From assembly GCF_003334405.1 (NCBI RefSeq), contig NZ_QOWM01000005.1: a stretch of DNA of 64,000 nt. One strand, written 5' to 3'. Below, piece by piece: positions 4,211-34,943 of this stretch. The position numbers and the translations under genes were made by a program. The notes beneath the pieces are model-generated. The model had not been told where the DNA came from. It searched no databases and saw only the letters and a program-made list of their open reading frames with translations. This stretch comes from Escherichia coli (lineage in GTDB: Bacteria > Pseudomonadota > Gammaproteobacteria > Enterobacterales > Enterobacteriaceae). How positions within the stretch are numbered: the first letter of the stretch is position 1; each line of letters starts with the position of its first letter.

Positions 4211-4245
4211 TGGCCGCCATGTGGCGGCCTGAATTATTTTTTGTT
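4211..4245. terminator. hairpin plus T-tract between convergent yjiA and brnA
   Basis: ggccgccatgtggcggcc inverted repeat followed by ttattttttg. Confidence 0.45.
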
Positions 4246-4536
4246 CTGATCGCGCAGCATCGCTTCACGTAAAATTGCGTTCAGGCGAGTTTGATAGCCT
4301 TTACCTGGTCGCTTCAACCATTCCATCACATCAGCATCAATACGCACCGAAGCCTGAGTTTTCAATGGCCGATAAAACTTACCGCGTTCGGCGTTAGACC
4401 ATTGCTCATCGCTGGAAGGTGGGATATCACTGTAATCAATATCTTCGTCGGATTTATTCGCCAGCGCCTTCAGTTCGGCCTCATGCTGCACATCGAGTGT
4501 AGAGGAGGTCCCTCGTTTATGTTTAACCATGCTCAT
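4234..4536 (-). CDS. BrnA-like antitoxin (DUF4415-type)
   Basis: ORF 4234..4623 trimmed to MSMVKHKRG...; start overlaps the stop of the upstream toxin reading frame, typical toxin-antitoxin coupling. Confidence 0.65.
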   Translation of the reverse strand: MSMVKHKRGTSSTLDVQHEAELKALANKSDEDIDYSDIPPSSDEQWSNAERGKFYRPLKTQASVRIDADVMEWLKRPGKGYQTRLNAILREAMLRDQNKK

Positions 4537-4808
4537 AGCGATTCCTCTCTTTACGATCTGCTTTTCGTGCACTGATGATTCGAATAATTTCATTTCCGCT
4601 TTCGAAACGGATGGTATGCGCAACCAGAATAACCACGATGCCGTAATGTCTGCCAGCGATACTCACCGTTTTCTATGCGTTCTTGCTGTGACAAATGTTG
4701 TGGATCATCAAACAATAACACCGCATCTTCAAAGCGGATGCCATGTTTCACCCGATTACTTTTGGCCTTGTTTTCATCCCATTCAAACTCCATTGGCATA
4801 ATTGCCAT
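4523..4808 (-). pseudogene. BrnT-like toxin (DUF497 family) interrupted by a +1 frameshift
   Basis: N-terminal frame (ORF 4590..4826) gives MEFEWDENKAKSNRVKHGIRFEDA...WQTLRH then runs out of frame; the C-terminal part GIVVILVAHTIRFESGNEIIRIISARKADRKERNRYEHG is in another frame ending at 4523. Confidence 0.55.
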
Positions 4809-4997
4809 CCCTAATTGTATATACAAAAATGTATCTACAATTATTCTGCAATTATAGCGTTGATGTTGGAAATAGCATCACGTTTCGAATAATCAACCAT
4901 GAAATTGACAATGAGTAAGTTGGACTTGATTCATCCAATAGAATTTCTCGCCTGACATGGCACACTAAACACCTCGCTGTCGGGTAATGACTCCAAC

Positions 4998-5501
4998 TTA
5001 CTGATAGTGTTTTATGTTCAGATAATGCCCGATGACCTTGTCATGCAGCTCCACCGATTTTGAGAACGACAGTGACTTCCGTCCCAGCCTTGCCAGATGT
5101 TGTCTCAGATTCAGATTATGTCGCTCAATGCGCTGAGTGTAACGCTTGCTGATAACGTGCAGCTTTCCCTTCAGGCGTGATTCATACAGCGGCCAGCCAT
5201 CCGTCATCTATACCACGACCTCAAAGGCCGACAGCAGGCTCAGAAGACGTTCCAGTGTGGCCAGAGTGCGTTCACCGAAGACGTGCGCCACAACCGTCCT
5301 CCGTATCCTGTCATACGCGTAAAACAGCCAGCGCTGACGTGATTTAGCACCGACGTAGCCCCACTGTTCGTCCATTTCAGCGCAGACAATCACATCACTG
5401 CCCGGTTGTATGCGCGAGGTTACCGACTGCGGCCTGAGTTTTTTAAGTGACGTAAAACCGTGTTGAGGCCAACGCCCATAATGCGTGCACTGGCGCGACA
5501 T
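4998..5501 (-). pseudogene. insB: IS1 insB reading frame with an internal in-frame stop
   Basis: ORF track splits it into 5208..5501 (97 aa) and 4998..5207 (69 aa) in the same frame, separated by a TAG codon directly followed by ATG. Confidence 0.55.
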
Positions 5502-5695
5502 CCGACGCCATTCATGGCCATATCAATGATTTTCTGGTGCGTACCGGGCTGAGAGGCGGTGTAAGTGAACTGTAGTTGCCATGTTTTACGGCAATGAGAG
5601 CAGAGATAGCGCTGATGTCCGGCAGTGCTTTTGCCGTTACGCACCACGCCTTCAGTAGCGGAGCAGGAAGGACATCTGATGGAAATGGAAGCCAC
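5420..5695 (-). CDS. insA: IS1 InsA
   Basis: 91 aa [43 protein letters not shown]... Confidence 0.9.
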
Positions 5696-5751
5696 GCAAG
5701 CACCTTAAAATCACCATCATACACTAAATCAGTAAGTTGGCAGCATTACCC

Positions 5752-5847
5752 GGATTCCATAATGATTCCACGCCCCGTTATGACAAATCTGCCGCCGATC
5801 TTGCCTGGCAAAGGACACTGAAATGGTTCGATAAATATCTCTCCTGA
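5752..5847 (+). pseudogene. 3' remnant of a dienelactone-hydrolase-like gene truncated by IS1
   Basis: Frame directly abutting the IS1 end reads [35 protein letters not shown], resembling the C-terminus of DLH-family hydrolases; only 31 codons. Confidence 0.3.
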
Positions 5848-5992
5848 TAGGTTTATCTCTTACGGGATTACGTCTTAAACAAGCATGAAAAAATAGCGTG
5901 CGCAAAAGTCGTTCTTTGCCTAAAATATCGCTATATATGGCGATATATAGCGAATAAAGTGAACGATGAATAACCATTTTGGTAAAGGCTTA

Positions 5993-13027: not shown

Positions 13028-13582
13028 TTACCACTCAAGAAACTCAACCGCAACCGTTGATGTCAGCCAGACCCCGTTTTCCGCTTGCCAGAAAGGGAGG
13101 CCTCGTTTCGCCATTTCCTGTGCTTTGACGGTTAAAATAACCGGCGATCCGTGTCTTGCTCCCACTTTGCGTGCCGTTGCTTCATCAGCAGAGAGATGTA
13201 CGTAGTGACGCTCACCTGCAATCAGCCCCTGTTTTTTTATCTCGTCAAGGAAACGGCTTGCCGTACCGTGGTAGAGAAACTGTGGCGGTGTTTTTTCGGC
13301 AAAGGAAATAGCGACCTGCGAAGTCGAATGCCCCTGAACCGCGCGGATGCACCTACCATCACTGGAATAACTAAAACGCTTTTTATCGCTGGTGGCAACC
13401 ACAGTATCCAGCAATGCACGGGTTAACCGCTTGCCCGCTTTTTGGGCACAAAGTATGAGCTTATCGATATCCGCCCATCCTTCACGGTCCAGTACGATAC
13501 CAATCGCCTCCGGTTTGTGTCGGAGGACAAAACTTAAAAACTTGCTCGTATCCGCCAGCTCTTTTTCGTTGTACTTTGCCAT
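13028..13582 (-). CDS. kptA: RNA 2'-phosphotransferase (Tpt1/KptA family)
   Basis: 184 aa [25 protein letters not shown]... with the family's HGT...R motifs. Confidence 0.9.
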
Positions 13583-13831
13583 CGCGTTTTCGTCCCTGGA
13601 TTATCTGTTTTTTATTTACTATGTCATTGTCACTGGGTTTATGAATTTTCTGCAACTCAATCCTGCGTAGAACCTTTTCCACACAGCGTAATTTTACCGC
13701 TATGCAAAAAACGCATAGTCAGAAACATACTTGCATTTTCCCCATACCCACATGGCTGATAAGGTTTTTCAGCTCCAGGAATTTTCCTGGCTCAAGCAAC
13801 ACACAAACACAAAAAAACAATGGGGATTGTT

Positions 13832-14515
13832 ATGACACAACAAGGGGATGCTGTAGCCGGGGAGCTGGCGACAGAAAAAGTGGGCATTAAAGGGTATCTG
13901 GCTTTTTTTCTCACCATAATCTTTTTTTCCGGTGTTTTTTCCGGGACAGACAGTTGGTGGCGCGTTTTTGATTTTTCCGTTCTGAACGGATCGTTTGGGC
14001 AACTGCCTGGTGCGAACGGAGCCACCACCTCGTTTCGCGGCGCGGGTGGCGCGGGGGCTAAAGATGGCTTTCTCTTTGCGCTGGAGCTGGCACCGTCAGT
14101 CATTCTCTCTCTGGGGATTATTTCAATTACCGATGGTCTTGGCGGATTACGCGCCGCGCAGCAGTTAATGACGCCAGTGCTAAAACCGTTGTTGGGCATT
14201 CCAGGGATCTGCTCGCTGGCGCTGATCGCTAACCTGCAAAACACCGATGCCGCCGCAGGTATGACCAAAGAGCTGGCGCAGGAAGGTGAAATTACCGAAC
14301 GCGATAAAGTGATTTTCGCCGCATATCAAACCAGCGGTAGCGCCATTATCACCAACTACTTCTCTTCCGGCGTCGCGGTGTTTGCCTTTCTGGGCACGTC
14401 CGTAATCGTACCTTTAGCAGTCATCCTGGTGTTTAAATTTGTCGGAGCCAACATTTTGCGCGTCTGGCTTAACTTCGAAGAACGTCGCAACCCAACGCAA
14501 GGAGCGCAAGCATGA
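13832..14515 (+). CDS. yjiH: membrane protein, nucleoside-recognition-domain family
   Basis: ORF 13820..14515 trimmed to MTQQGD for 227 aa; overlaps yjiG start. Confidence 0.75.
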   Translation: MTQQGDAVAGELATEKVGIKGYLAFFLTIIFFSGVFSGTDSWWRVFDFSVLNGSFGQLPGANGATTSFRGAGGAGAKDGFLFALELAPSVILSLGIISITDGLGGLRAAQQLMTPVLKPLLGIPGICSLALIANLQNTDAAAGMTKELAQEGEITERDKVIFAAYQTSGSAIITNYFSSGVAVFAFLGTSVIVPLAVILVFKFVGANILRVWLNFEERRNPTQGAQA

Positions 14516-16222: not shown

Positions 16223-17134
16223 ATGGATGACTGTGGTGCGGTTTTGCATAATATTGAAACTAAATGGCTTTATGATTTTCTGACCCTGGAAAAATGCCGC
16301 AATTTTTCCCAGGCAGCAGTCAGTCGCAACGTCTCGCAACCGGCATTCAGCCGCCGCATCCGTGCGCTGGAACAGGCGATTGGCGTTGAATTGTTTAACC
16401 GCCAGGTGACGCCGCTGCAACTCTCGGAACAAGGTAAAATATTCCATTCGCAGATCCGCCATCTGTTGCAACAGTTAGAGAGCAACCTTGCAGAACTCCG
16501 TGGTGGCAGCGATTACGCGCAACGCAAAATTAAAATAGCCGCTGCACACTCTCTTTCCCTCGGGCTGTTACCGTCCATTATCAGCCAGATGCCGCCGCTC
16601 TTTACCTGGGCAATTGAAGCTATTGATGTCGATGAAGCGGTCGATAAACTGCGTGAAGGGCAAAGTGACTGTATTTTTTCCTTTCACGACGAAGATTTGC
16701 TGGAAGCGCCGTTTGACCACATTCGCTTATTTGAATCTCAATTGTTCCCTGTCTGCGCCAGTGACGAACACGGAGAAGCACTTTTTAACCTCGCGCAGCC
16801 ACACTTTCCGTTACTGAATTACAGCCGCAACTCCTACATGGGGCGATTGATTAATCGCACCCTGACGCGCCACAGTGAGTTAAGTTTCAGCACCTTTTTT
16901 GTCTCTTCGATGAGCGAGCTTTTAAAGCAGGTTGCCCTCGACGGCTGTGGGATTGCCTGGCTGCCGGAGTACGCCATCCAACAAGAAATTCGCAGCGGGC
17001 AGCTCGTTGTACTGAATCGGGACGAACTGGTGATCCCGATTCAGGCCTATGCATACCGAATGAATACCCGCATGAATCCAGTTGCCGAACGCTTCTGGCG
17101 TGAACTGCGCGAGCTGGAGATTGTACTTAGCTGA
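16223..17134 (+). CDS. hypT: LysR-family transcriptional regulator (hypochlorite-responsive HypT)
   Basis: 303 aa, N-terminal LysR HTH. Confidence 0.85.
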
Positions 17135-17519
17135 CATTCTCGAGCGTCGCACTACGCCAACCGCCATTATCCCAGACCAGATCAAACGTTAGCGGTTCAT
17201 CGTCGTGGTACAGCATTATCTCAAGGCTGATCGCCAGCGTGTGGCTGTACGCTTCTTTCAGATTGACCTGCAACGCCGCAATCCGTGGCTCATGAAATAA
17301 CAGTGCAGAACGCAGCTGACGGCAATACCAGCTCTGGAGATGTTTGTCGCTCTGGTTATGCACTTGCCACTCGGGCATGCCTGAAACAAGTAATGACGGT
17401 AATGCCGAATGAGGAGAATTAAAAAGAGTGAGGAGATCGCTACATATTGATTTACGCAGCGATGACGTTTTATTGCCTGAAATTTCAGGTAAAACAGCCT
17501 GACGTGATTGGCGCATCAT
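17127..17519 (-). CDS. iraD: anti-adapter protein IraD
   Basis: ORF 17127..17528 trimmed to [12 protein letters not shown] for 130 aa. Confidence 0.8.
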
Positions 17520-18191
17520 TTTGCGCACTCCTGACGTTTAGCAACATATGCGGCTTGCCCTGAACACCGGGCACCACTGTATTGATGCTCATTTTCCATA
17601 GCCATTCCCTTTTGTTCATTACATCCATGTCAGTCTGAGACAGGCCTGAATCCTGTCAGCAAAGTATAAAACCTTACTTGCCTATGAATATCTACTGACT
17701 TTTCAGGAAAAAAGTCATGATTTGATAAAAATCATCAAACTCAAAAAAAAACCGCTAGTATATTCTGAATATTCCGAATAGTTACGTAGATGAAAATACT
17801 TGTCACCACCGCTACTTAATTCCGGTGTGAAATTATTTATTTCCGCATAATCAGCCATGTATTATTTGAAACAATTAGTTTGTAAATAATATAAATTGAT
17901 AACATATCAAATACATCAAAAATACCATTCACAGGCATTATTAATATAGACATCAATATAGCAACATCAAATTCCAATTAGTAATAAGATATGCTTTTAA
18001 ATTGCATGAAAATAATTTCAAATGAGCGTTTTTTGATACTTTAGAGTGTTTCCTACCCTTTAATATCACCGTGTAGAGTTGATATCACTACAACAGAAAC
18101 ATGCATGTCATTTGTTTACTTCTCATTTTACTACAGAAAAATTTATCTATTTTTCTAAACATCAGTGAAATACTCATAAAAGGTAACTATT

Positions 18192-19022
18192 ATGTCTATG
18201 CCATTAAGCAATACCCTTCAGAGCCAAATTATTACAGATAATCACTTCCTTCATCATCCAAAAGTCGACAGTGAGTTAACACGTAAATATGAACGTGCAC
18301 GCCTGGATACGGAAAATATCTATCTTCTGCCTCTTGCTCGTGGCAATAACCATAATTACGATGGAAAAAGCGTTGTCGAAATTAGAAAACTTGATATTAG
18401 TAAAGAGTCCTGGCCATTTAATTATGTGACAGAAGCATGCAGAGAATCCGATGGTATTACAACAACAGGACGTATGCTCTATCGAAACTTGAAAATCACC
18501 TCAGCTTTAGACGAAATATATGGTGGCATATGTAAAAAGGCGCATGCTGCTACAGAATTAGCAGAAGGTTTACGGCTAAATTTATTTATGAAGAGCCCTT
18601 TCGATCCTGTTGAGGACTATACAGTTCATGAAATAACATTAGGCCCTGGTTGCAATGTTCCAGGTTACGCCGGAACCACGATAGGATATATTTCAACCCT
18701 TCCAGTTTCTCAGGCAAAAAGATGGACCAATGAGCAGCCAAGAATTGATATCTATATTGATCAGATAATAACTGTCTCAGGGGTAGCAAATTCTTCCGGA
18801 TTCGCCCTTGCCGCATTACTTAATGCTAATATTGAGATGGGAAATGACCCAATCATTGGTATAGAAGCCTATCCTGGTACCGCGGAGATCCATGCAAAAA
18901 TGGGATATAAAGTTATCCCCGGTGATGAAGATGCGCCACTCAAACGCATGACTCTGCAACCGTCATCTCTTCCAGAACTGTTTGAATTAAAAAATGGTGA
19001 ATGGAATTATATTGGTAAATAG
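18192..19022 (+). CDS. yjiC: uncharacterised protein YjiC
   Basis: 276 aa ORF in a markedly AT-rich segment. Confidence 0.7.
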   Translation: MSMPLSNTLQSQIITDNHFLHHPKVDSELTRKYERARLDTENIYLLPLARGNNHNYDGKSVVEIRKLDISKESWPFNYVTEACRESDGITTTGRMLYRNLKITSALDEIYGGICKKAHAATELAEGLRLNLFMKSPFDPVEDYTVHEITLGPGCNVPGYAGTTIGYISTLPVSQAKRWTNEQPRIDIYIDQIITVSGVANSSGFALAALLNANIEMGNDPIIGIEAYPGTAEIHAKMGYKVIPGDEDAPLKRMTLQPSSLPELFELKNGEWNYIGK

Positions 19023-19115
19023 CAACTGAGAAGAATGAGTACTAATATTCAGGTTATACAGATATTTAAACAATACCCTGCAATTTACAAAGCAATACTC
19101 ATTGCGACTTCTTAA

Positions 19116-19150
19116 TTTAAGAAAGCGCAAGGAACGTTTACCCTTGCGCT
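19116..19150. terminator. inverted repeat between convergent yjiC and uxuR
   Basis: aagcgcaagg ... ccttgcgctt. Confidence 0.4.
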
Positions 19151-19162
19151 TATTATAATAAG

Positions 19163-19936
19163 TCAGACGTCGACTTTATCCAGCGGCCATGAATCAAACA
19201 GATAGCCGTCAAAATAAATATCGTCAACGTTCGAGAATTCCAGCAGACGTTGCTTAACGTTTTCCAGATGCTGCCACATTGCCAGCTTCGCCGCTCGGGC
19301 ATCTTTTTTGATTAACGCGGCGAGGATCTGTTTGTGATCGCCCAACCACTCTTTGCGATACAGGCTGTCATCCAGATGGCTGTGCAACTGGATCCACATT
19401 GGATTGTTTTCCCGCCACTGCCAGGACTGACGGAATAACTCCACCAGCATGCTGTTATGCGTTGCTTCGGCAATGGCGAGATGGAACTGCATATCACCGC
19501 TTTCGCTGCTACCCGGCGCGCTGGAAGCCAGTTCACGCTCTTCCAGTTGCAATGCCTGACGCATTTTGACGATATCTTCGCGGGTAGCCTGCAAAGCGGC
19601 AAATTCCGCGATGTTACTTTCCAGTAACTGACGCGCCTGTAACAGCTCAAAAGGACCCGCATCATTACAGACGTTGGCATCCGAACTGTCTGTGTTGTGG
19701 CTGCCTGAGCTATCAAGAACATAGATACCGGCACCCCGGCGCACTTCCACCAGCCCTTTGATCTCCAGCATGATCAGCGCTTCACGTACCACCGTCCGCG
19801 TGACATCAAGCATTTCTGCAATTTCACGCTCCGGCGGCAGCCGTTCGCCAGGATTGTACGGCGTCTTTATGATCAGATCGCGGATCATCGCCCCGACTTC
19901 CTGGTAAGGTCTTTGCGCAGAGGTGGCAGATTTCAT
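19163..19936 (-). CDS. uxuR: GntR-family repressor of the hexuronate regulon
   Basis: 257 aa with GntR HTH. Confidence 0.9.
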   Translation of the reverse strand: MKSATSAQRPYQEVGAMIRDLIIKTPYNPGERLPPEREIAEMLDVTRTVVREALIMLEIKGLVEVRRGAGIYVLDSSGSHNTDSSDANVCNDAGPFELLQARQLLESNIAEFAALQATREDIVKMRQALQLEERELASSAPGSSESGDMQFHLAIAEATHNSMLVELFRQSWQWRENNPMWIQLHSHLDDSLYRKEWLGDHKQILAALIKKDARAAKLAMWQHLENVKQRLLEFSNVDDIYFDGYLFDSWPLDKVDV

Positions 19937-22876: not shown

Positions 22877-23036
22877 GATTTTTCCTCTTTCACATAGTGG
22901 GTTCCACAGCAAAGAGACGCGGAACCCTGGAGTTGTTTAGGTATCCGGATGAACAACCAGACCGCAGCCGTGGCGTTGCATCGGATGAGATGGCGTATAA
23001 GTTCTACCTTTTGGTAAGACATGTCAACCCGAATTC

Positions 23037-23054
23037 TGAAATTGGTTAACCACA
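23037..23054. promoter_or_regulatory. candidate UxuR/ExuR operator in the uxuA/gntP divergent region
   Basis: AAATTGGTTAACCACAT, half-site AAATTGGT matches the recalled hexuronate operator consensus. Confidence 0.3.
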
Positions 23055-23215
23055 TCACAAGAATTTCACTCTCCTGGTTGTTGCTGCAAATTGCAGCAAA
23101 AGGTAATCGATGGTTATTGATCAGAGGATGTGACATTCATCGCAACAATGGTTGACCAATTTACATAACATGTCGCCCAAAATAACAACGGTTCAACCAG
23201 GTAAGGTAAAACGTT

Positions 23216-24559
23216 ATGCATGTGCTTAACATTCTCTGGGTGGTATTCGGCATTGGTCTGATGCTGGTACTGAATTTGAAGTTCAAAATCAATTCAATGG
23301 TGGCCTTGTTGGTGGCGGCGCTGTCCGTCGGGATGCTGGCGGGCATGGATTTGATGTCGCTGCTGCACACCATGAAAGCGGGCTTCGGCAACACGCTGGG
23401 GGAACTGGCTATCATCGTGGTGTTCGGTGCGGTCATCGGTAAATTGATGGTCGACTCCGGCGCGGCTCACCAGATAGCGCATACGCTGCTGGCACGTCTC
23501 GGTCTGCGTTATGTACAGCTGTCGGTGATTATCATCGGCCTGATTTTCGGTCTGGCGATGTTCTATGAAGTGGCCTTTATCATGTTAGCACCGCTGGTTA
23601 TTGTTATTGCCGCCGAAGCTAAAATTCCGTTCCTGAAACTGGCGATCCCGGCAGTAGCAGCTGCCACTACCGCACATTCACTGTTCCCACCGCAGCCGGG
23701 TCCGGTGGCGCTGGTGAATGCTTATGGCGCGGATATGGGGATGGTTTATATCTATGGCGTACTGGTGACGATCCCAAGTGTCATCTGCGCAGGTCTGATC
23801 CTGCCGAAGTTCCTCGGCAATCTTGAGCGCCCAACGCCATCATTCCTGAAAGCAGATCAACCGGTAGATATGAATAATCTGCCCTCTTTCGGCGTTTCGA
23901 TTCTGGTGCCGTTGATCCCGGCGATCATTATGATCTCTACCACCATCGCCAATATCTGGCTGGTAAAAGATACCCCTGCGTGGGAAGTGGTTAACTTTAT
24001 CGGTTCCTCGCCGATTGCAATGTTTATTGCGATGGTGGTTGCATTCGTACTCTTTGGCACCGCGCGCGGGCACGATATGCAGTGGGTAATGAACGCTTTT
24101 GAAAGCGCGGTGAAAAGCATTGCAATGGTGATTCTGATCATCGGTGCAGGTGGCGTGCTGAAGCAGACCATCATCGACACCGGCATCGGCGACACCATCG
24201 GCATGCTGATGTCCCACGGCAATATCTCGCCCTACATCATGGCATGGCTGATCACCGTACTGATTCGTCTGGCGACGGGTCAGGGTGTGGTTTCAGCGAT
24301 GACCGCCGCCGGGATTATCAGTGCAGCAATCCTTGATCCAGCAACTGGTCAGCTGGTTGGCGTGAATCCGGCGCTGCTGGTACTGGCGACGGCTGCGGGT
24401 TCCAACACCCTCACCCACATTAACGATGCCTCATTCTGGTTGTTCAAAGGTTACTTTGACCTGTCAGTAAAAGACACGTTGAAAACCTGGGGTCTGCTGG
24501 AGCTGGTCAACTCCGTGGTTGGGCTGATTATTGTGCTGATTATTAGCATGGTAGCGTAA
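23216..24559 (+). CDS. gntP: GntP-family permease (gluconate/fructuronate)
   Basis: 447 aa polytopic membrane protein. Confidence 0.9.
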
Positions 24560-30778: not shown

Positions 30779-31333
30779 TTATTGATACTGAACCTTGAAG
30801 GTCGCATCCGCATTAGCAGCACCCGGGGTTGCCTCGCCGATTGCATAATAACGCGCCTGGAACGGAATGGTGTTGGTACCGTTATTCAGGGTTGTTTGTG
30901 CACTAAATGTCGCACCGTCCAGCGTCAGCTCATTTCCTGTTCTGTCCAGTATCTGCACACCAACATTTGTTGCGCTACCCGCAGCTGAACTCTGCAGAGC
31001 CAGTACTTTAGGATGAGCACTGTCAATCGCAGTCCCCAAGAAGGCAACAGCGGCTTTTGTGGCAACACTGGTATCGCAATCATTCAGCTGAATGTTAAAA
31101 CCGACAGCAGAGCTGGTTGCTCCAGTCTGCTTCAGACTAGCGGTACGAACCTGGCCCAACTGAACGGTTTGATCAACAGATCCTGCATCAACTGCGCAAG
31201 CGGCGTTAACAACTTCCCCTTTAAAGTGAACGGTCCCACCATTTACCGTCGTGGGTGTAGTTTCAGCCAGAGCCGCTGTAGAACTCAGGGACAGAGCCGA
31301 CAGAACAACAATTGCCAGAGTTTTAATTTTCAT
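30779..31333 (-). CDS. fimA: type 1 fimbrial major subunit
   Basis: 184 aa [23 protein letters not shown]...ATFKVQYQ. Confidence 0.9.
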
Positions 31334-31452
31334 ACTGCTTTCCTTTCAAAAAACTATTTCTAAATCGACATGGGCAGTCGTTCCGTACACTTTGTTTTGT
31401 CAACGAGTTTGACTGCCAACACTGCACAGTTTCCCCCCAAAAGATGAAACAT

Positions 31453-31767
31453 TTGGGGCCATTTTGACTCATAGAGGAAAGCATCGCGCACAAACTTTTT
31501 CAGTTTATTTGTTGGCTTTATATTCTATTGTTATCTTTATTTATAGATTTTTATATTGCATGAGGTGGTTTTTGGAGAGAAGAATGAGGAAGTTGCTTCG
31601 AGACACAGAAACGTTAGCTTTACATTTAGCGGAGGTGATGTGAAATTAATTTACAAGAGAAATGATTTACATATCAAACAGTTAGATGCTTTTTGTCGTT
31701 TTATAATATTTTTATGCTTGAGAAAAAATACGTAACTTATTTATGATATGGACAGTTTTGGCCCCAA
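31453..31767. promoter_or_regulatory. fimS: fimS invertible promoter element (fim switch), apparently in the OFF orientation
   Basis: 9 bp inverted repeats TTGGGGCCA at 31453-31461 and TGGCCCCAA at 31759-31767; internal TTGAGA-N18-TATGATA promoter (31718-31748) reads toward fimE, away from fimA. Confidence 0.7.
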
Positions 31768-31814: not shown

Positions 31815-32411
31815 TTAAACCTCTTCTCTTTTTAATTTTTCGTTTATAAGATTATTTCTTTCCCATAATCCGGCAAAACGAGCAGCATTACTGGCGGTAT
31901 AACGCACAGTATGGCGAATATTTCGATGCCCGAGATAATCCTGAATTAAACGGGTATCTGCACCACGCTCCGCCAGTTCATAACCGCAAGCATGCCTTAA
32001 CATATGAGGATGAGTCTGCGTTACGGTTCCAGCTTCAATACCGGCATCGCGAATAATGCGATAGGCCTGCTGGCGAGAAAGCCGACTCCCGCGGCGAGAA
32101 ATAAATATAGCGTCGGTCCGGTCAGCGCCTTTCCAGTTAGCACGTTCCTGGGTCCAGCGTTCCACGGCTTCACGCTCATCAAAACGTAACGGGTGAACGG
32201 TAGAAAATCCGTTCTTCAGTCGGCGAATATTTATTCGACCTTCATTAAGGTCAAGGTCCTGATAATGCAGATCAAGCAGTTCACTAATACGCATCCCATG
32301 CCGATATGCCAACAGAATAAGACAATAATCTCTGGCTCCCGTTGCCCCGTAACAAACCGCCTGCATCATGGCCTGAACTTCTTTACCGGTAAGATAACGA
32401 CGTTTACTCAC
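31815..32411 (-). CDS. fimE: fim switch tyrosine recombinase (ON-to-OFF)
   Basis: 198 aa tyrosine recombinase. Confidence 0.9.
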   Translation of the reverse strand: MSKRRYLTGKEVQAMMQAVCYGATGARDYCLILLAYRHGMRISELLDLHYQDLDLNEGRINIRRLKNGFSTVHPLRFDEREAVERWTQERANWKGADRTDAIFISRRGSRLSRQQAYRIIRDAGIEAGTVTQTHPHMLRHACGYELAERGADTRLIQDYLGHRNIRHTVRYTASNAARFAGLWERNNLINEKLKREEV

Positions 32412-32887
32412 AATAGTAGTACTCCTGACTGAGATATATTTGAATGAATACCTATAGGAAACCTCAATCGGTCAAAATTAGCCCAATAGATAAAAAGATA
32501 ACCACACACGAAGTGATGTGGCTATCAGTCAATTACATTAAATATCATACAAAAATAAAATATCACTGATGTGATAACATCTATTTTCATTGATTTGATT
32601 CAATATAACAATAGATTGCAGTGGATTAACTTCCAGTTGCTTAAAAAATAAAGAAAAAATGTGAAAACAGATGAATTTAAGTGATGTGTAAATTTATGAA
32701 TGATTTTGTTTATTTATTTTGAAGAACATAAACCATTGTATTTTGTATGGATATGGTTAACTTAATGTTTATTATTATAATTAAGAATCACACTTACAAT
32801 AACATCAATTAATAAATGGTTAATCATTTTTGATATATCGTAAGAATAATGTAGTTTTTAACACCATCCCTGGTATCTCAACTATCT

Positions 32888-33490
32888 CTATAAAACAGCG
32901 TGACGCTGTCGTCCTCTGGCCCTATCCCAGATGCCGTAAAAACGCCCTGCATTGCTGGCGGTATACCAGACAGTATGACGAATATTGCGATGCCCAAGAT
33001 AATCCTGGATAAGTCGCGTATCTATTCCCATATTCGCCAAAGCAAAACCACACGAATGGCGTAACATGTGCGGATGAATCTCCAGTGACAACCCGGCATT
33101 ACCACCGGAAGTCGAGATAATATGGTAAAACTGTTGCCGAGAAAGCGGATTCCCCTTACGCGATAAAAATACCCATTCGCTCTCAGCATGCGGGTACGAA
33201 GTACGGATACTCAACCAGTTTTTTAAAGCCTGAACTTCTTTGTTCAATAGCGGGTGCGTTGTTGAAAAGCCTTTTTTTAATCGATGGATATAGATACACT
33301 TTGCCTTAAGATCAATATCCGAAATCCTCAATCGACAAATTTCACTCGCCCGGAAACCATGAATAAAACAAAGCAAAGTCAGACAATAATTACGTGCTGC
33401 ATGAGGCCCGGTATTTGCTGCTTTAAGGAGTGATTCGATTTCACTATGGGTCAGGAAGTTCCTTTTTTTGTTATCAGCCTTATTCTTCAT
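32888..33490 (-). CDS. fimB: fim switch tyrosine recombinase (bidirectional)
   Basis: 200 aa tyrosine recombinase. Confidence 0.9.
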   Translation of the reverse strand: MKNKADNKKRNFLTHSEIESLLKAANTGPHAARNYCLTLLCFIHGFRASEICRLRISDIDLKAKCIYIHRLKKGFSTTHPLLNKEVQALKNWLSIRTSYPHAESEWVFLSRKGNPLSRQQFYHIISTSGGNAGLSLEIHPHMLRHSCGFALANMGIDTRLIQDYLGHRNIRHTVWYTASNAGRFYGIWDRARGRQRHAVL

Positions 33491-34503
33491 CGTTTTCCCT
33501 TATAATTACAGACGCGCACTAGCTGTGCTGGGTTAGCAATAATCCAACATTTTAATCCTGATTATGTTTATAAAAGCGAACGTTTGCTTAATAACTAACG
33601 TAAGTGGACCAGTTCTTCTGAGTGAACTTAAATGGAGTAGCGATAGTTACTTATAATAACTTTGCCATACAAACGCCATGCTCTTGCATGCTATGTACCT
33701 TTATATATTTATAAATCTGATACGAATCGAATAATAACCCTCATCATTAATGCAACTAATCTTATCTATATATCATGTGATATGTTCTGTAACAAGTAAA
33801 ATCAACATAAAAAATTCAGCAAAATTTAATATTCGTTCAACTAGCCGTCTCACATATGACATTATTAGTCAACTGCATTTGCCACAAAATGGCTATTTCA
33901 TGGAACGCAGTAATTTCTTAGTGGCTATTATCATGCTAATTCTTAGATCCCTAGCGATTATTCCTGCCTGGTTCGTCAGCTTAGGCCATGAGATTGTTAC
34001 ATTCCCTTTTATCCTGGAGATATGGGGGAACGCAGGCGACGCTTTTTCATCTACATCCGTTGGTAACTATGGCTTTGGTCACTACGACTTAAACCTTCCT
34101 CAATCACAGCTATTCGCCGGGCGATACGGCAAACAAACTAAGTGAAACATCATCCTGAAAACACCAACATCAACAAGCCTCTCCAGATCGACATCAGGAG
34201 TGACCAGTTACAAGCCACAAACCAAGAAACATATTTCATGATGAGAATTATACTCAGCCTGATGGCGGGTAAACACTTATTTTCACCAAGCTCACTGAGT
34301 TAGCTTGCAAAGCTTTCTTTGTTTAGATTCTAAATAAATTATTTACAAAACAGATTGTTAAAAGAAAACCTTTAGTTTTTGAAGACCAATGCAAGTGTTC
34401 GTCTGGCTTCACATGGCATCTGCTTCTTAGGAAAAGATCGACATATTTTGTGACACGAATTGCAAATCTGGTTTTGTTGTATGGATTGCGTGATTTTTGA
34501 TCT

Positions 34504-34523
34504 GGTATAACAGGTATAAAGGT
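34504..34523. promoter_or_regulatory. NanR operator-like GGTATA repeats upstream of nanC
   Basis: GGTATAACAGGTATAAAGGT: two exact GGTATA hexamers and a degenerate third. Confidence 0.5.
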
Positions 34524-34943
34524 GCACCGCGATAGTCAATGAGACTGGGCATCTCGTAATCTATGGCAAACATCACTTCAGTTCTTTCTCATCGGGTGAT
34601 GAAAACGCACTTCAGTCTGAAAGGAATATGAAAATGAGATCAACAGACACTCTATTTTATGACTCTGGGTAAAATGGATTGAGTAAGCGATATAGCTTAC
34701 GAAAATTCAAATCAATTAAACATCAGCAGAGATTTTATACTCAGGTATTTAATCTGGCCCTCTGTTTATTTAAATAATGTGGAAAGAGATTTTTCACAGG
34801 AGATATTATACAAAAAATATAAAATACAGCTACCGGTTGCCAAAGACACTATAAGCCTGGCAAAAAAATATTACACAACATAAATGCTAATTGTTTATGC
34901 GGGCTTTGTATTGCTTTCTGTATCCTACAAATGAGTGAAATTT

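Follow-up and report, generated by a model that had tools for sequence, protein, structure and literature searches.

Two described systems come close to the AT-rich islet around the gene yjiC in Escherichia coli, that is, H-NS xenogeneic silencing, as known from Salmonella and E. coli, and the H-NS-bound "promoter islands" of the Ozoline group (PLoS One 2013, PMC3661553). The islet lies at positions 17530-19150 of a 64,000-nt stretch of the E. coli chromosome (assembly GCF_003334405.1, contig NZ_QOWM01000005.1), here called the window. With xenogeneically silenced DNA it shares a GC content some 15-20 points below that of the genome, reported H-NS occupancy, restriction to few taxa, and presence/absence polymorphism, but it has no mobility signature or donor, is at least as old as the split of E. 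coli and E. albertii, and is integrated in the iraD/RpoS stress circuit of the host. With the promoter islands, the relationship is one of identity. The spacer between yjiC and iraD is listed in Table 1 of the 2013 paper as "yjiC(-)/iraD(+) 4554354_526", 526 bp in length, among 78 K-12 islands. As tabulated there, it is H-NS-bound in the chromatin immunoprecipitation (ChIP) data of Kahramanoglou (MG1655) and Oshima (W3110) and lies inside a GIST genomic island, while adjoining genes are called foreign by Nakamura (two) and Lawrence (one) (PMC3661553). Promoter islands are described as transcriptionally suppressed, whereas this one contains two characterized productive promoters, iraD P1 and iraD P2, and responds to replication stress with strong induction. 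The AT-richness, H-NS binding, and "foreign" label of the spacer have therefore been in print since 2013, and the initial annotation, which read the islet as typical of horizontally acquired, H-NS-silenced DNA, is in essence a rediscovery. What holds of that reading is the AT-richness, the reported H-NS occupancy, and a protein family found only in Escherichia; what does not hold is a recent acquisition or a role as mere silenced cargo.

The explanation favored here, with a probability of roughly 70%, is that the islet is old Escherichia AT-rich DNA under H-NS and stress control and that YjiC has a GNAT fold. It is made up of three parts: a divergent control region of 672 bp that serves both iraD and yjiC, yjiC itself, and a short stretch before uxuR with a hairpin that probably terminates both yjiC and uxuR. 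The tract of 27-32% GC would nucleate an H-NS filament that keeps P1 and the yjiC promoter quiet during growth, and stress signals, namely, ppGpp, loss of repression by DnaA-ATP, and SspA lowering hns expression, would open the region both ways, so that yjiC would be expressed alongside the IraD/RpoS arm of the stress response. The models suggest that YjiC and its paralog YjfZ have a GNAT fold that has diverged strongly. Most likely, both act as N-acyltransferases that depend on acyl-CoA, their cofactor core being conserved while the N-terminal tail and the α1-α2 acceptor region evolve fast. The AT-richness itself would be no fading trace of a new arrival but a state kept up by regulatory architecture, by mutation bias under weak selection, or by both.

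The composition of the islet is clear. Its computed GC content is 36.3%, compared with 50.4% for the whole window. The iraD-yjiC spacer (17529-18191) has 31.7%, the tract within it at 17700-18190 has 27.3%, and the yjiC-uxuR spacer has 32.9%; the lowest point of a 300-nt GC profile, 26%, falls at 17850-18149. The yjiC gene (18192-19022) has 40.1%, with 49.8, 39.7, and 30.7% at the three codon positions, whereas the flanking genes lie between 49 and 58% (iraD, 49.0%; hypT, 50.8%; uxuR, 52.8%; iadA, 56.3%; uxuB, 57.8%) and have 51.5-66.9% GC at third codon positions (GC3). In 17700-18190, there are 10 A/T-only runs of at least 8 nt, against a mean of 1.6 (standard deviation 2.0) per 491-nt tile, and just 0.7% of such tiles reach 10. 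The initial annotation had described the region as AT-richer than its flanks, with long A/T tracts at 17700-18190, and had named a windowed GC computation as the check, to be read against it if GC did not differ from the neighboring genes. That computation confirms the AT-richness at the positions given, and the possibility of equal composition clearly fails. The gene names used there were right as well, RefSeq having iraD, idlP, ytiD, yjiC (276 aa, DUF2686), and uxuR at these places.

Equally AT-rich stretches of the same length make up 0.7% of the window, and all of them are in the fim region at 31-35 kb. They correspond to 31200-31700, 32150-32750, and 33150-34800, the fimA-fimE, fimE-fimB, and fimB-nanC spacers, with a minimum of 27% GC. 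The same three spacers are listed as further H-NS-bound promoter islands in the table of PMC3661553. Smaller dips of 42-45% GC at 13350-13950 (kptA/yjiH) and 22950-23250 (uxuA/gntP) are divergent spacers and appear to be ordinary intergenic DNA.

YjiC belongs to Pfam DUF2686 (E = 4.5e-153), and relatives of the protein were sought in a word index of 5.8 billion proteins, with HMMER in an exhaustive pass over 1.84 billion cluster representatives, and in a collection of one genome per GTDB species, scanned with two strict peptide patterns that would miss distant relatives. None of these searches yielded a relative outside Escherichia, the members coming only from E. coli, Shigella, and E. albertii; the HMMER search returned Escherichia fragments, two low-complexity false positives, and nothing else. 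A 1.3-kb contig labeled as a Collinsella sp. metagenome-assembled genome (L011) matches the yjfZ locus of E. coli at 95.6% identity and was discarded as a mis-binned Escherichia contig. Within the genus, iraD, yjiC, and uxuR follow one another in this order also in E. albertii, in one E. coli genome whose allele is divergent (L007), and in an Escherichia contig from a metagenome (L008), and in all of these, as in the window, the spacer has 31-32% GC and yjiC has a GC3 of 30-36%. The synonymous divergence (dS) of the flanks between the window and E. albertii is 0.4-0.9. The shared synteny and composition imply that the islet predates the split of E. coli and E. albertii. It is old Escherichia-specific AT-rich DNA rather than a recent insertion, and its AT-richness has not drifted toward the host composition since before that split, which makes it look like a maintained state.

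These data bear directly on the view that yjiC and its upstream DNA were inserted between iraD and uxuR by recent horizontal transfer, have not been ameliorated, and are silenced by H-NS as cargo. Low GC and GC3 and the foreign calls of compositional methods are in line with it, as are homologs restricted to one genus and the absence of yjiC from 492 of 5426 complete E. coli genomes surveyed (~9%). Opposed to it is the finding that E. albertii and further deep lineages have this gene order and this composition too. In addition, no integrase, tRNA, target-site duplication, or flanking repeat was found at the islet, and the phage collection holds no yjiC copy. Nine "plasmid" matches proved to be non-mobilizable records of 0.37-4.9 Mb, which are taken as chromosomal sequence, leaving no true plasmid copy. 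The genomes without yjiC carry an IraD that is 77% identical in protein (dS 0.74), which points to an imported or ancient allele with a deletion and not to an empty ancestral site. A recent insertion is thus already largely refuted and is the least probable of the accounts considered here. "Horizontally acquired" can then mean only an ancient, untraceable event, and the islet may also have originated inside the lineage.

The pattern of substitution in yjiC is that of a coding gene. Its ratio of nonsynonymous to synonymous divergence (dN/dS, or omega) is 0.31-0.54 across four allele classes, compared with 0.01-0.28 for neighboring genes. Along the protein, omega is 0.6-1.3 for residues 1-50, where the window and K-12 are 78% identical (omega 1.3), 0.08-0.30 for residues 51-69, 0.2-0.76 for residues 70-140, and 0.09-0.50 for residues 141-276. 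Four lineages, with dS of 0.5-0.8 between them, all keep the frame intact. Judged by these ratios, the core is under purifying selection and the N-terminus is nearly unconstrained.

The paralog YjfZ is 41% identical to YjiC over 226 residues (E = 3e-58), and a five-sequence alignment of the two proteins has 71 invariant positions. Like YjiC, YjfZ belongs to DUF2686, has the same predicted fold, is encoded in an AT-rich islet, and is confined to Escherichia. Elsewhere it has served as a "signature protein" specific to E. coli/Shigella (PMC11057252). It differs in its unlinked locus, next to rplI and ytfB instead of iraD, and in a Tyr at motif B where YjiC has His. In K-12, this second islet (L004, 10616-11999; 32-46% GC) lies between rplI and ytfB beside a truncated TetR/AcrR pseudogene; the gene has 42% GC with a GC3 of 37%, and the upstream spacer has 36%.

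Given this pattern, it is hard to regard yjiC as a decaying or non-functional open reading frame (ORF) in an islet whose sole functional content is the iraD control region. Such a view can draw on the lack of a known function, on the many truncated variants (clusters of 229-262 aa and Shigella copies), on IS1 insertions, and on the strains without the gene. Against these stand the frame kept intact in four lineages, the dN/dS of 0.08-0.5 in the predicted core, and the invariant positions shared with YjfZ, as well as the 11-fold induction of the yjiC transcript by azidothymidine (AZT) and the phenotype of an insertion mutant. In an atypical enteropathogenic E. coli strain, a transposon insertion in yjiC reduced biofilm formation, the sole phenotype found, and this comes from a single uncomplemented mutant. 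A decaying ORF is accordingly held to be highly improbable.

The initial annotation found no recognizable motif in the 276-aa product and proposed structure prediction. Such a prediction gives a GNAT fold with motif A-like and motif B-like segments, so the protein is not featureless. The AlphaFold2 model of YjiC, built from a 14-sequence alignment, has the topology β1-α1-α2-β2-β3-β4-α3-β5-α4-β6-β7, which is that of the GNAT fold, and most 10-residue blocks from residue 141 on reach a predicted local distance difference test (pLDDT) of 70-92. The predicted elements are as follows.

Residues 54-68, 144-151, 162-170, 187-194, 222-226, 251-255, and 264-273: strands of the model, which ends in a terminal hairpin after 251-255.
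Residues 115-132, 201-212, and 231-236: helices of the model.

When the YjiC model was searched with Foldseek against AFDB50, the first entries outside DUF2686 were Xenorhabdus N-acetyltransferases (E = 4e-6). YjfZ, modeled independently as the target, matched GNATs only (PaiA, SpeG, and AAC(6')-Ib), with E = 1e-5 and a probability of 1.00. The best structural matches in the GNAT superfamily include the tRNA-acetylating toxins ItaT, TacT, and AtaT, phage Mu Mom, PaiA, SpeG, and AAC(6'). The likeness lies in the topology, in a glycine-containing β4-α3 loop, and in a motif B-like "A-x-I-[HY]-x-x-x-G-[YF]". GNAT motif A has the consensus Q/R-x-x-G-x-G/A. On our own reading of both motifs, YjiC has the similar N200-S-S-G-F-A between β4 and α3, the N and the G being invariant in the five-sequence alignment, and at motif B, YjiC has A231-E-I-H-A-K-M-G-Y and YjfZ has A-A-I-Y-S-G-L-G-F. 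Unlike GNATs, YjiC has no profile similarity to acetyltransferases of Pfam, NCBIfam, or the PDB, and it carries some 50 additional residues as an N-terminal tail and, between α1 and α2, a long insert modeled at low confidence.

Several observations weigh against the fold assignment or against catalysis. Pfam assigns all 14 family members to DUF2686 only and to no acetyltransferase family, and sequence and profile searches of the PDB gave no GNAT family match, the best single-sequence match being 6k5j (E = 0.016). The two models, made from shallow alignments, have low mean pLDDT values, 56.7 for YjiC and 52.5 for YjfZ. The motif A-like loop has N where Q or R is usual and A, V, or I at its last position, and YjiC has His at the motif B position where Tyr is usual. 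YjiC could therefore be a non-catalytic GNAT-like scaffold. Beyond DUF2686, NCBIfam, PADLOC, and PHROGs gave nothing significant for YjiC, YjfZ, or IraD. On balance, the models support a GNAT fold for DUF2686 with fair confidence, whereas for acyltransferase activity of YjiC the chances appear to be even. Because the top-ranking GNAT subfamily is not the same for the two models, no substrate can be inferred. A GNAT toxin-antitoxin module of the TacAT, AtaRT, or ItaRT type was considered and rejected because YjiC has no antitoxin partner gene; the upstream plus-strand ORFs are of 29-46 aa only, none is annotated, and PADLOC gave no match.

The islet sits in the order hypT (+), iraD (-), yjiC (+), uxuR (-), and uxuB (-). 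The iraD ATG is at 17519, and the spacer to yjiC is therefore exactly 672 bp (17520-18191). The parts of the locus, from left to right, are given below.

17127-17519, minus strand: iraD, RpoS-stabilizing anti-adaptor and left neighbor, 49% GC, outside the AT-rich stretch (ORF, RefSeq, and Pfam GPW_gp25 on orthologs).
17516-17599, minus strand: idlP (ORF27), iraD leader peptide, whose stop codon overlaps the iraD start codon (ORF and RefSeq annotation).
17593-17601, plus strand: putative DnaA box TTTTCCATA, read from the sequence, with its position mapped in this analysis.
17652-17773, minus strand: iraD promoter P2 fragment (-254 to -133), from the coordinates of PMC5574718 mapped onto the iraD ATG.
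About 17655-18181, no strand assigned: the published 526-bp yjiC/iraD promoter island (PMC3661553), placed approximately through the ytiB coordinates of PMC6001520, with an accuracy of about 20 nt.
17715-17858, minus strand: ytiD (ORF47), small ORF in the leader of the P1 transcript (ORF and RefSeq annotation).
17837-17938, minus strand: ytiB, 33-aa small ORF of the P1 leader, containing ytiC (ORF).
17837-17905, minus strand: ytiC (ORF23), 22-aa small ORF of the P1 leader, within ytiB (ORF).
17932-18066, minus strand: iraD promoter P1 fragment (-547 to -413), from the coordinates of PMC5574718 mapped onto the window.
About 17780-19022, no strand assigned: evolutionarily labile segment (P1, ytiB/C/D, and yjiC), absent from about 17852 on in genomes of the yjiC-less haplotype; rare alleles are hyperdivergent here.
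18192-19022, plus strand: yjiC, 276 aa, Pfam DUF2686, predicted GNAT fold.
19125-19149, no strand assigned: GC-rich hairpin GCGCAAGG-N9-CCTTGCGC, with U-rich tails on each strand.
19163-19936, minus strand: uxuR, right neighbor and core gene, 52.8% GC (ORF and RefSeq annotation).

Thus placed, the promoter island matches the A/T tract noted in the initial annotation and is the 27%-GC core of the islet. The placement presumes an offset between two MG1655 sequence versions. The regulatory elements of the spacer are those described for iraD. The 33-aa ytiB peptide of the window is identical to the published one (PMC6001520), idlP is translationally coupled to iraD and is a CsrA target (PMC5574718), and a putative DnaA box has been described at -81 from the iraD ATG (bioRxiv 10.1101/2021.05.20.444958). 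For P2, the likely -10 element is TATACT at 17663-17668, with a start site near 17657 (-138); for P1, a consensus scan offers TTGATG (17970-17965) and TATATT (17948-17943) as candidate hexamers. Because P1, P2, ytiB/C, ytiD, idlP, and the DnaA box all lie there, the most AT-rich DNA is a dense working control region of iraD and not merely silenced or inert cargo. At the other end of the islet, the hairpin is probably a shared terminator of the convergent yjiC and uxuR, with folding energies of -17.5 (+) and -18.6 (-) kcal/mol (z = -4.6 and -4.8), and 0 of 200 shuffles were as stable. A simple terminator consensus scan missed it. Rfam at a permissive threshold gave nothing for 16900-19500 except a chance snoRNA match far below threshold.

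Published expression data place the region under stress control. IraD is subject to regulation by CsrA, DnaA, ppGpp, and SspA, and the control region carries CsrA sites. Replication stress caused by AZT induces ytiC 260-fold, ytiD 33-fold, idlP 18-fold, iraD 14-fold, and yjiC 11-fold, that is, transcripts in both directions from the iraD-yjiC control region. This induction is independent of LexA (dependence ~1) and depends 2.7- to 6.3-fold on SspA, and hns expression falls 2.6-fold under AZT in an SspA-dependent manner. In Shigella, RNA polymerase inhibitors induce yjiC together with virulence-plasmid genes, fimB/fimE, and shiA. This co-induced set is known as H-NS-repressed. Such data are indirect support for silencing of yjiC by H-NS, which may be direct.

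There are also points that count against control by H-NS as favored here. No global relief of H-NS targets is seen after AZT, which leaves the SspA/H-NS route only one possibility, and DnaA with ppGpp may explain the induction without H-NS. The ChIP occupancy comes second-hand through the tables of PMC3661553 rather than from the primary ones, and a search of the accessible literature returned no report on yjiC expression in an hns mutant. The high-affinity H-NS motif TCGATAAATT (at most 2 mismatches) occurs 81 times in the window, with 64 expected, and only twice in the islet, where it is not enriched; one site with 1 mismatch is at 18140-18149. When the sequence was scanned for a simple sigma-70 consensus, 6 promoter-like sites were counted, compared with 7.4 ± 3.0 for shuffled sequences of matched composition, so that any excess of such sites is explained by AT content; the promoter-island authors used PlatProm, a different algorithm.

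The locus is polymorphic within E. coli. In the survey of complete genomes, in which identity is that of nucleotides to the yjiC allele of the window, the gene is present in 4896 of the 5426, with an intact-length copy in 4882. Identity is at least 99% in 731 genomes and 95-99% in 3237 (K-12 at 95.2%), 919 genomes (~17%) at 90-95% have an in-frame 45-bp deletion, and 9 are at 60-80%. The yjiC-less haplotype, carried for example by NRG 857C, has only 413 bp between iraD and uxuR. Its homology to the window stays recognizable across idlP and P2 but has faded by about 17783-17852; beyond this, 79-150 bp of AT-rich DNA of unrelated sequence take the place of P1, ytiC, yjiC, and even the terminator hairpin of uxuR. 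An imperfect inverted repeat of 16 nt (17758-17773 and 19044-19059), which appeared to bracket the indel, was dismissed as chance, a better alignment putting the breakpoint near 17852. Since E. albertii has yjiC, this haplotype is most simply a divergent one with loss of the segment, and an ancestral empty site appears unlikely. Its iraD allele is unusually deep for within-species variation, and the strains carrying it have a ptsP/dhaL-like phosphotransferase system cluster or its remnant between hypT and iraD (L003, 52-2433; L002, 2642-3013).

The rare yjiC alleles, with 64-71% protein identity, are in otherwise E. coli-like flanks. In L007, the flanks differ from the window by dS of 0.01-0.08 and yjiC by dS of 0.48; the divergence climbs from about 17780, amounts to about 30% in the coding sequence, and breaks off sharply with the stop codon. 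In L008, identity begins to fall at the yjiC start codon. The stable part of the locus is therefore iraD-idlP-P2. Structural variants include IS1 in or beside yjiC and a 20-residue tandem duplication at about residues 70-90, in addition to the shortened products mentioned above.

The islet can also be read without any transfer. The family may have arisen within Escherichia from a resident GNAT gene whose divergence has made it unrecognizable by sequence, the AT-richness being drift of poorly expressed, weakly selected DNA and of regulatory spacers to the GC-to-AT mutational equilibrium, and H-NS binding a consequence of it instead of a defense response. In favor are the stable composition across lineages with no sign of amelioration, the relaxed constraint (dN/dS of 0.3-0.5, and about 1 in the N-terminus), the frequent truncated, deleted, duplicated, and IS1-interrupted alleles, the failure to find a donor, and the two paralogs at unlinked loci, both AT-rich. 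However, the adjoining fast-evolving iraD has 49% GC, so AT-richness here does not follow from weak constraint alone, and the GC3 of yjiC, 31%, is far below that of other genes in the window. Moreover, structural similarity outside the family is closest to the Xenorhabdus N-acetyltransferases and not to E. coli GNATs. This account, which differs from the favored one only in the ultimate origin, is considered unlikely, albeit the least so of the alternatives.

The favored explanation, old AT-rich DNA with a GNAT-fold product, can be extended to what the proteins do. YjiC and YjfZ may be active genus-specific GNAT acyltransferases engaged in biological conflict or a niche-specific interaction, with YjiC deployed together with IraD/RpoS on replication block. 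This would explain the near-neutral to fast evolution of the N-terminus and acceptor region, the at least four allele classes of 60-70% identity, the allele divergence within E. coli-like flanks, and the recurrent loss. Such a role is doubtful and is put forward only as a speculation.

Two further observations concern the neighborhood. Orthologs of IraD (L005, L007, and L008) match Pfam GPW_gp25, a phage baseplate protein family, and because of this match, IraD may be derived from a gene of a phage or contractile injection system; the protein evolves fast, with 77% identity to that of E. albertii. Between yjiA and mdtM, 4223-5850 is a variable locus with a BrnT/BrnA toxin-antitoxin pair, an IS1 pseudogene, and a dienelactone-hydrolase fragment. 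At this position, K-12 has mcrBC-hsdRMS-mrr, the "immigration control region".

As a compositional anomaly, the islet adds little to what has been published on its AT-richness, H-NS binding, and "foreign" label, and its regulatory elements are well studied. It does illustrate that AT-richness is not proof of recent transfer, having been AT-rich since before E. coli and E. albertii split. Given that P1 and the leader ORFs are in the same labile segment as yjiC, which is missing in about 9% of complete genomes, IraD regulation as described in K-12 need not hold in those strains. The modest added value lies in the evidence for the age of the islet, in the limits drawn for the labile segment, and in the predicted GNAT fold of DUF2686, a family treated as uncharacterized in the searchable literature, for which the assignment would provide a testable biochemical hypothesis.

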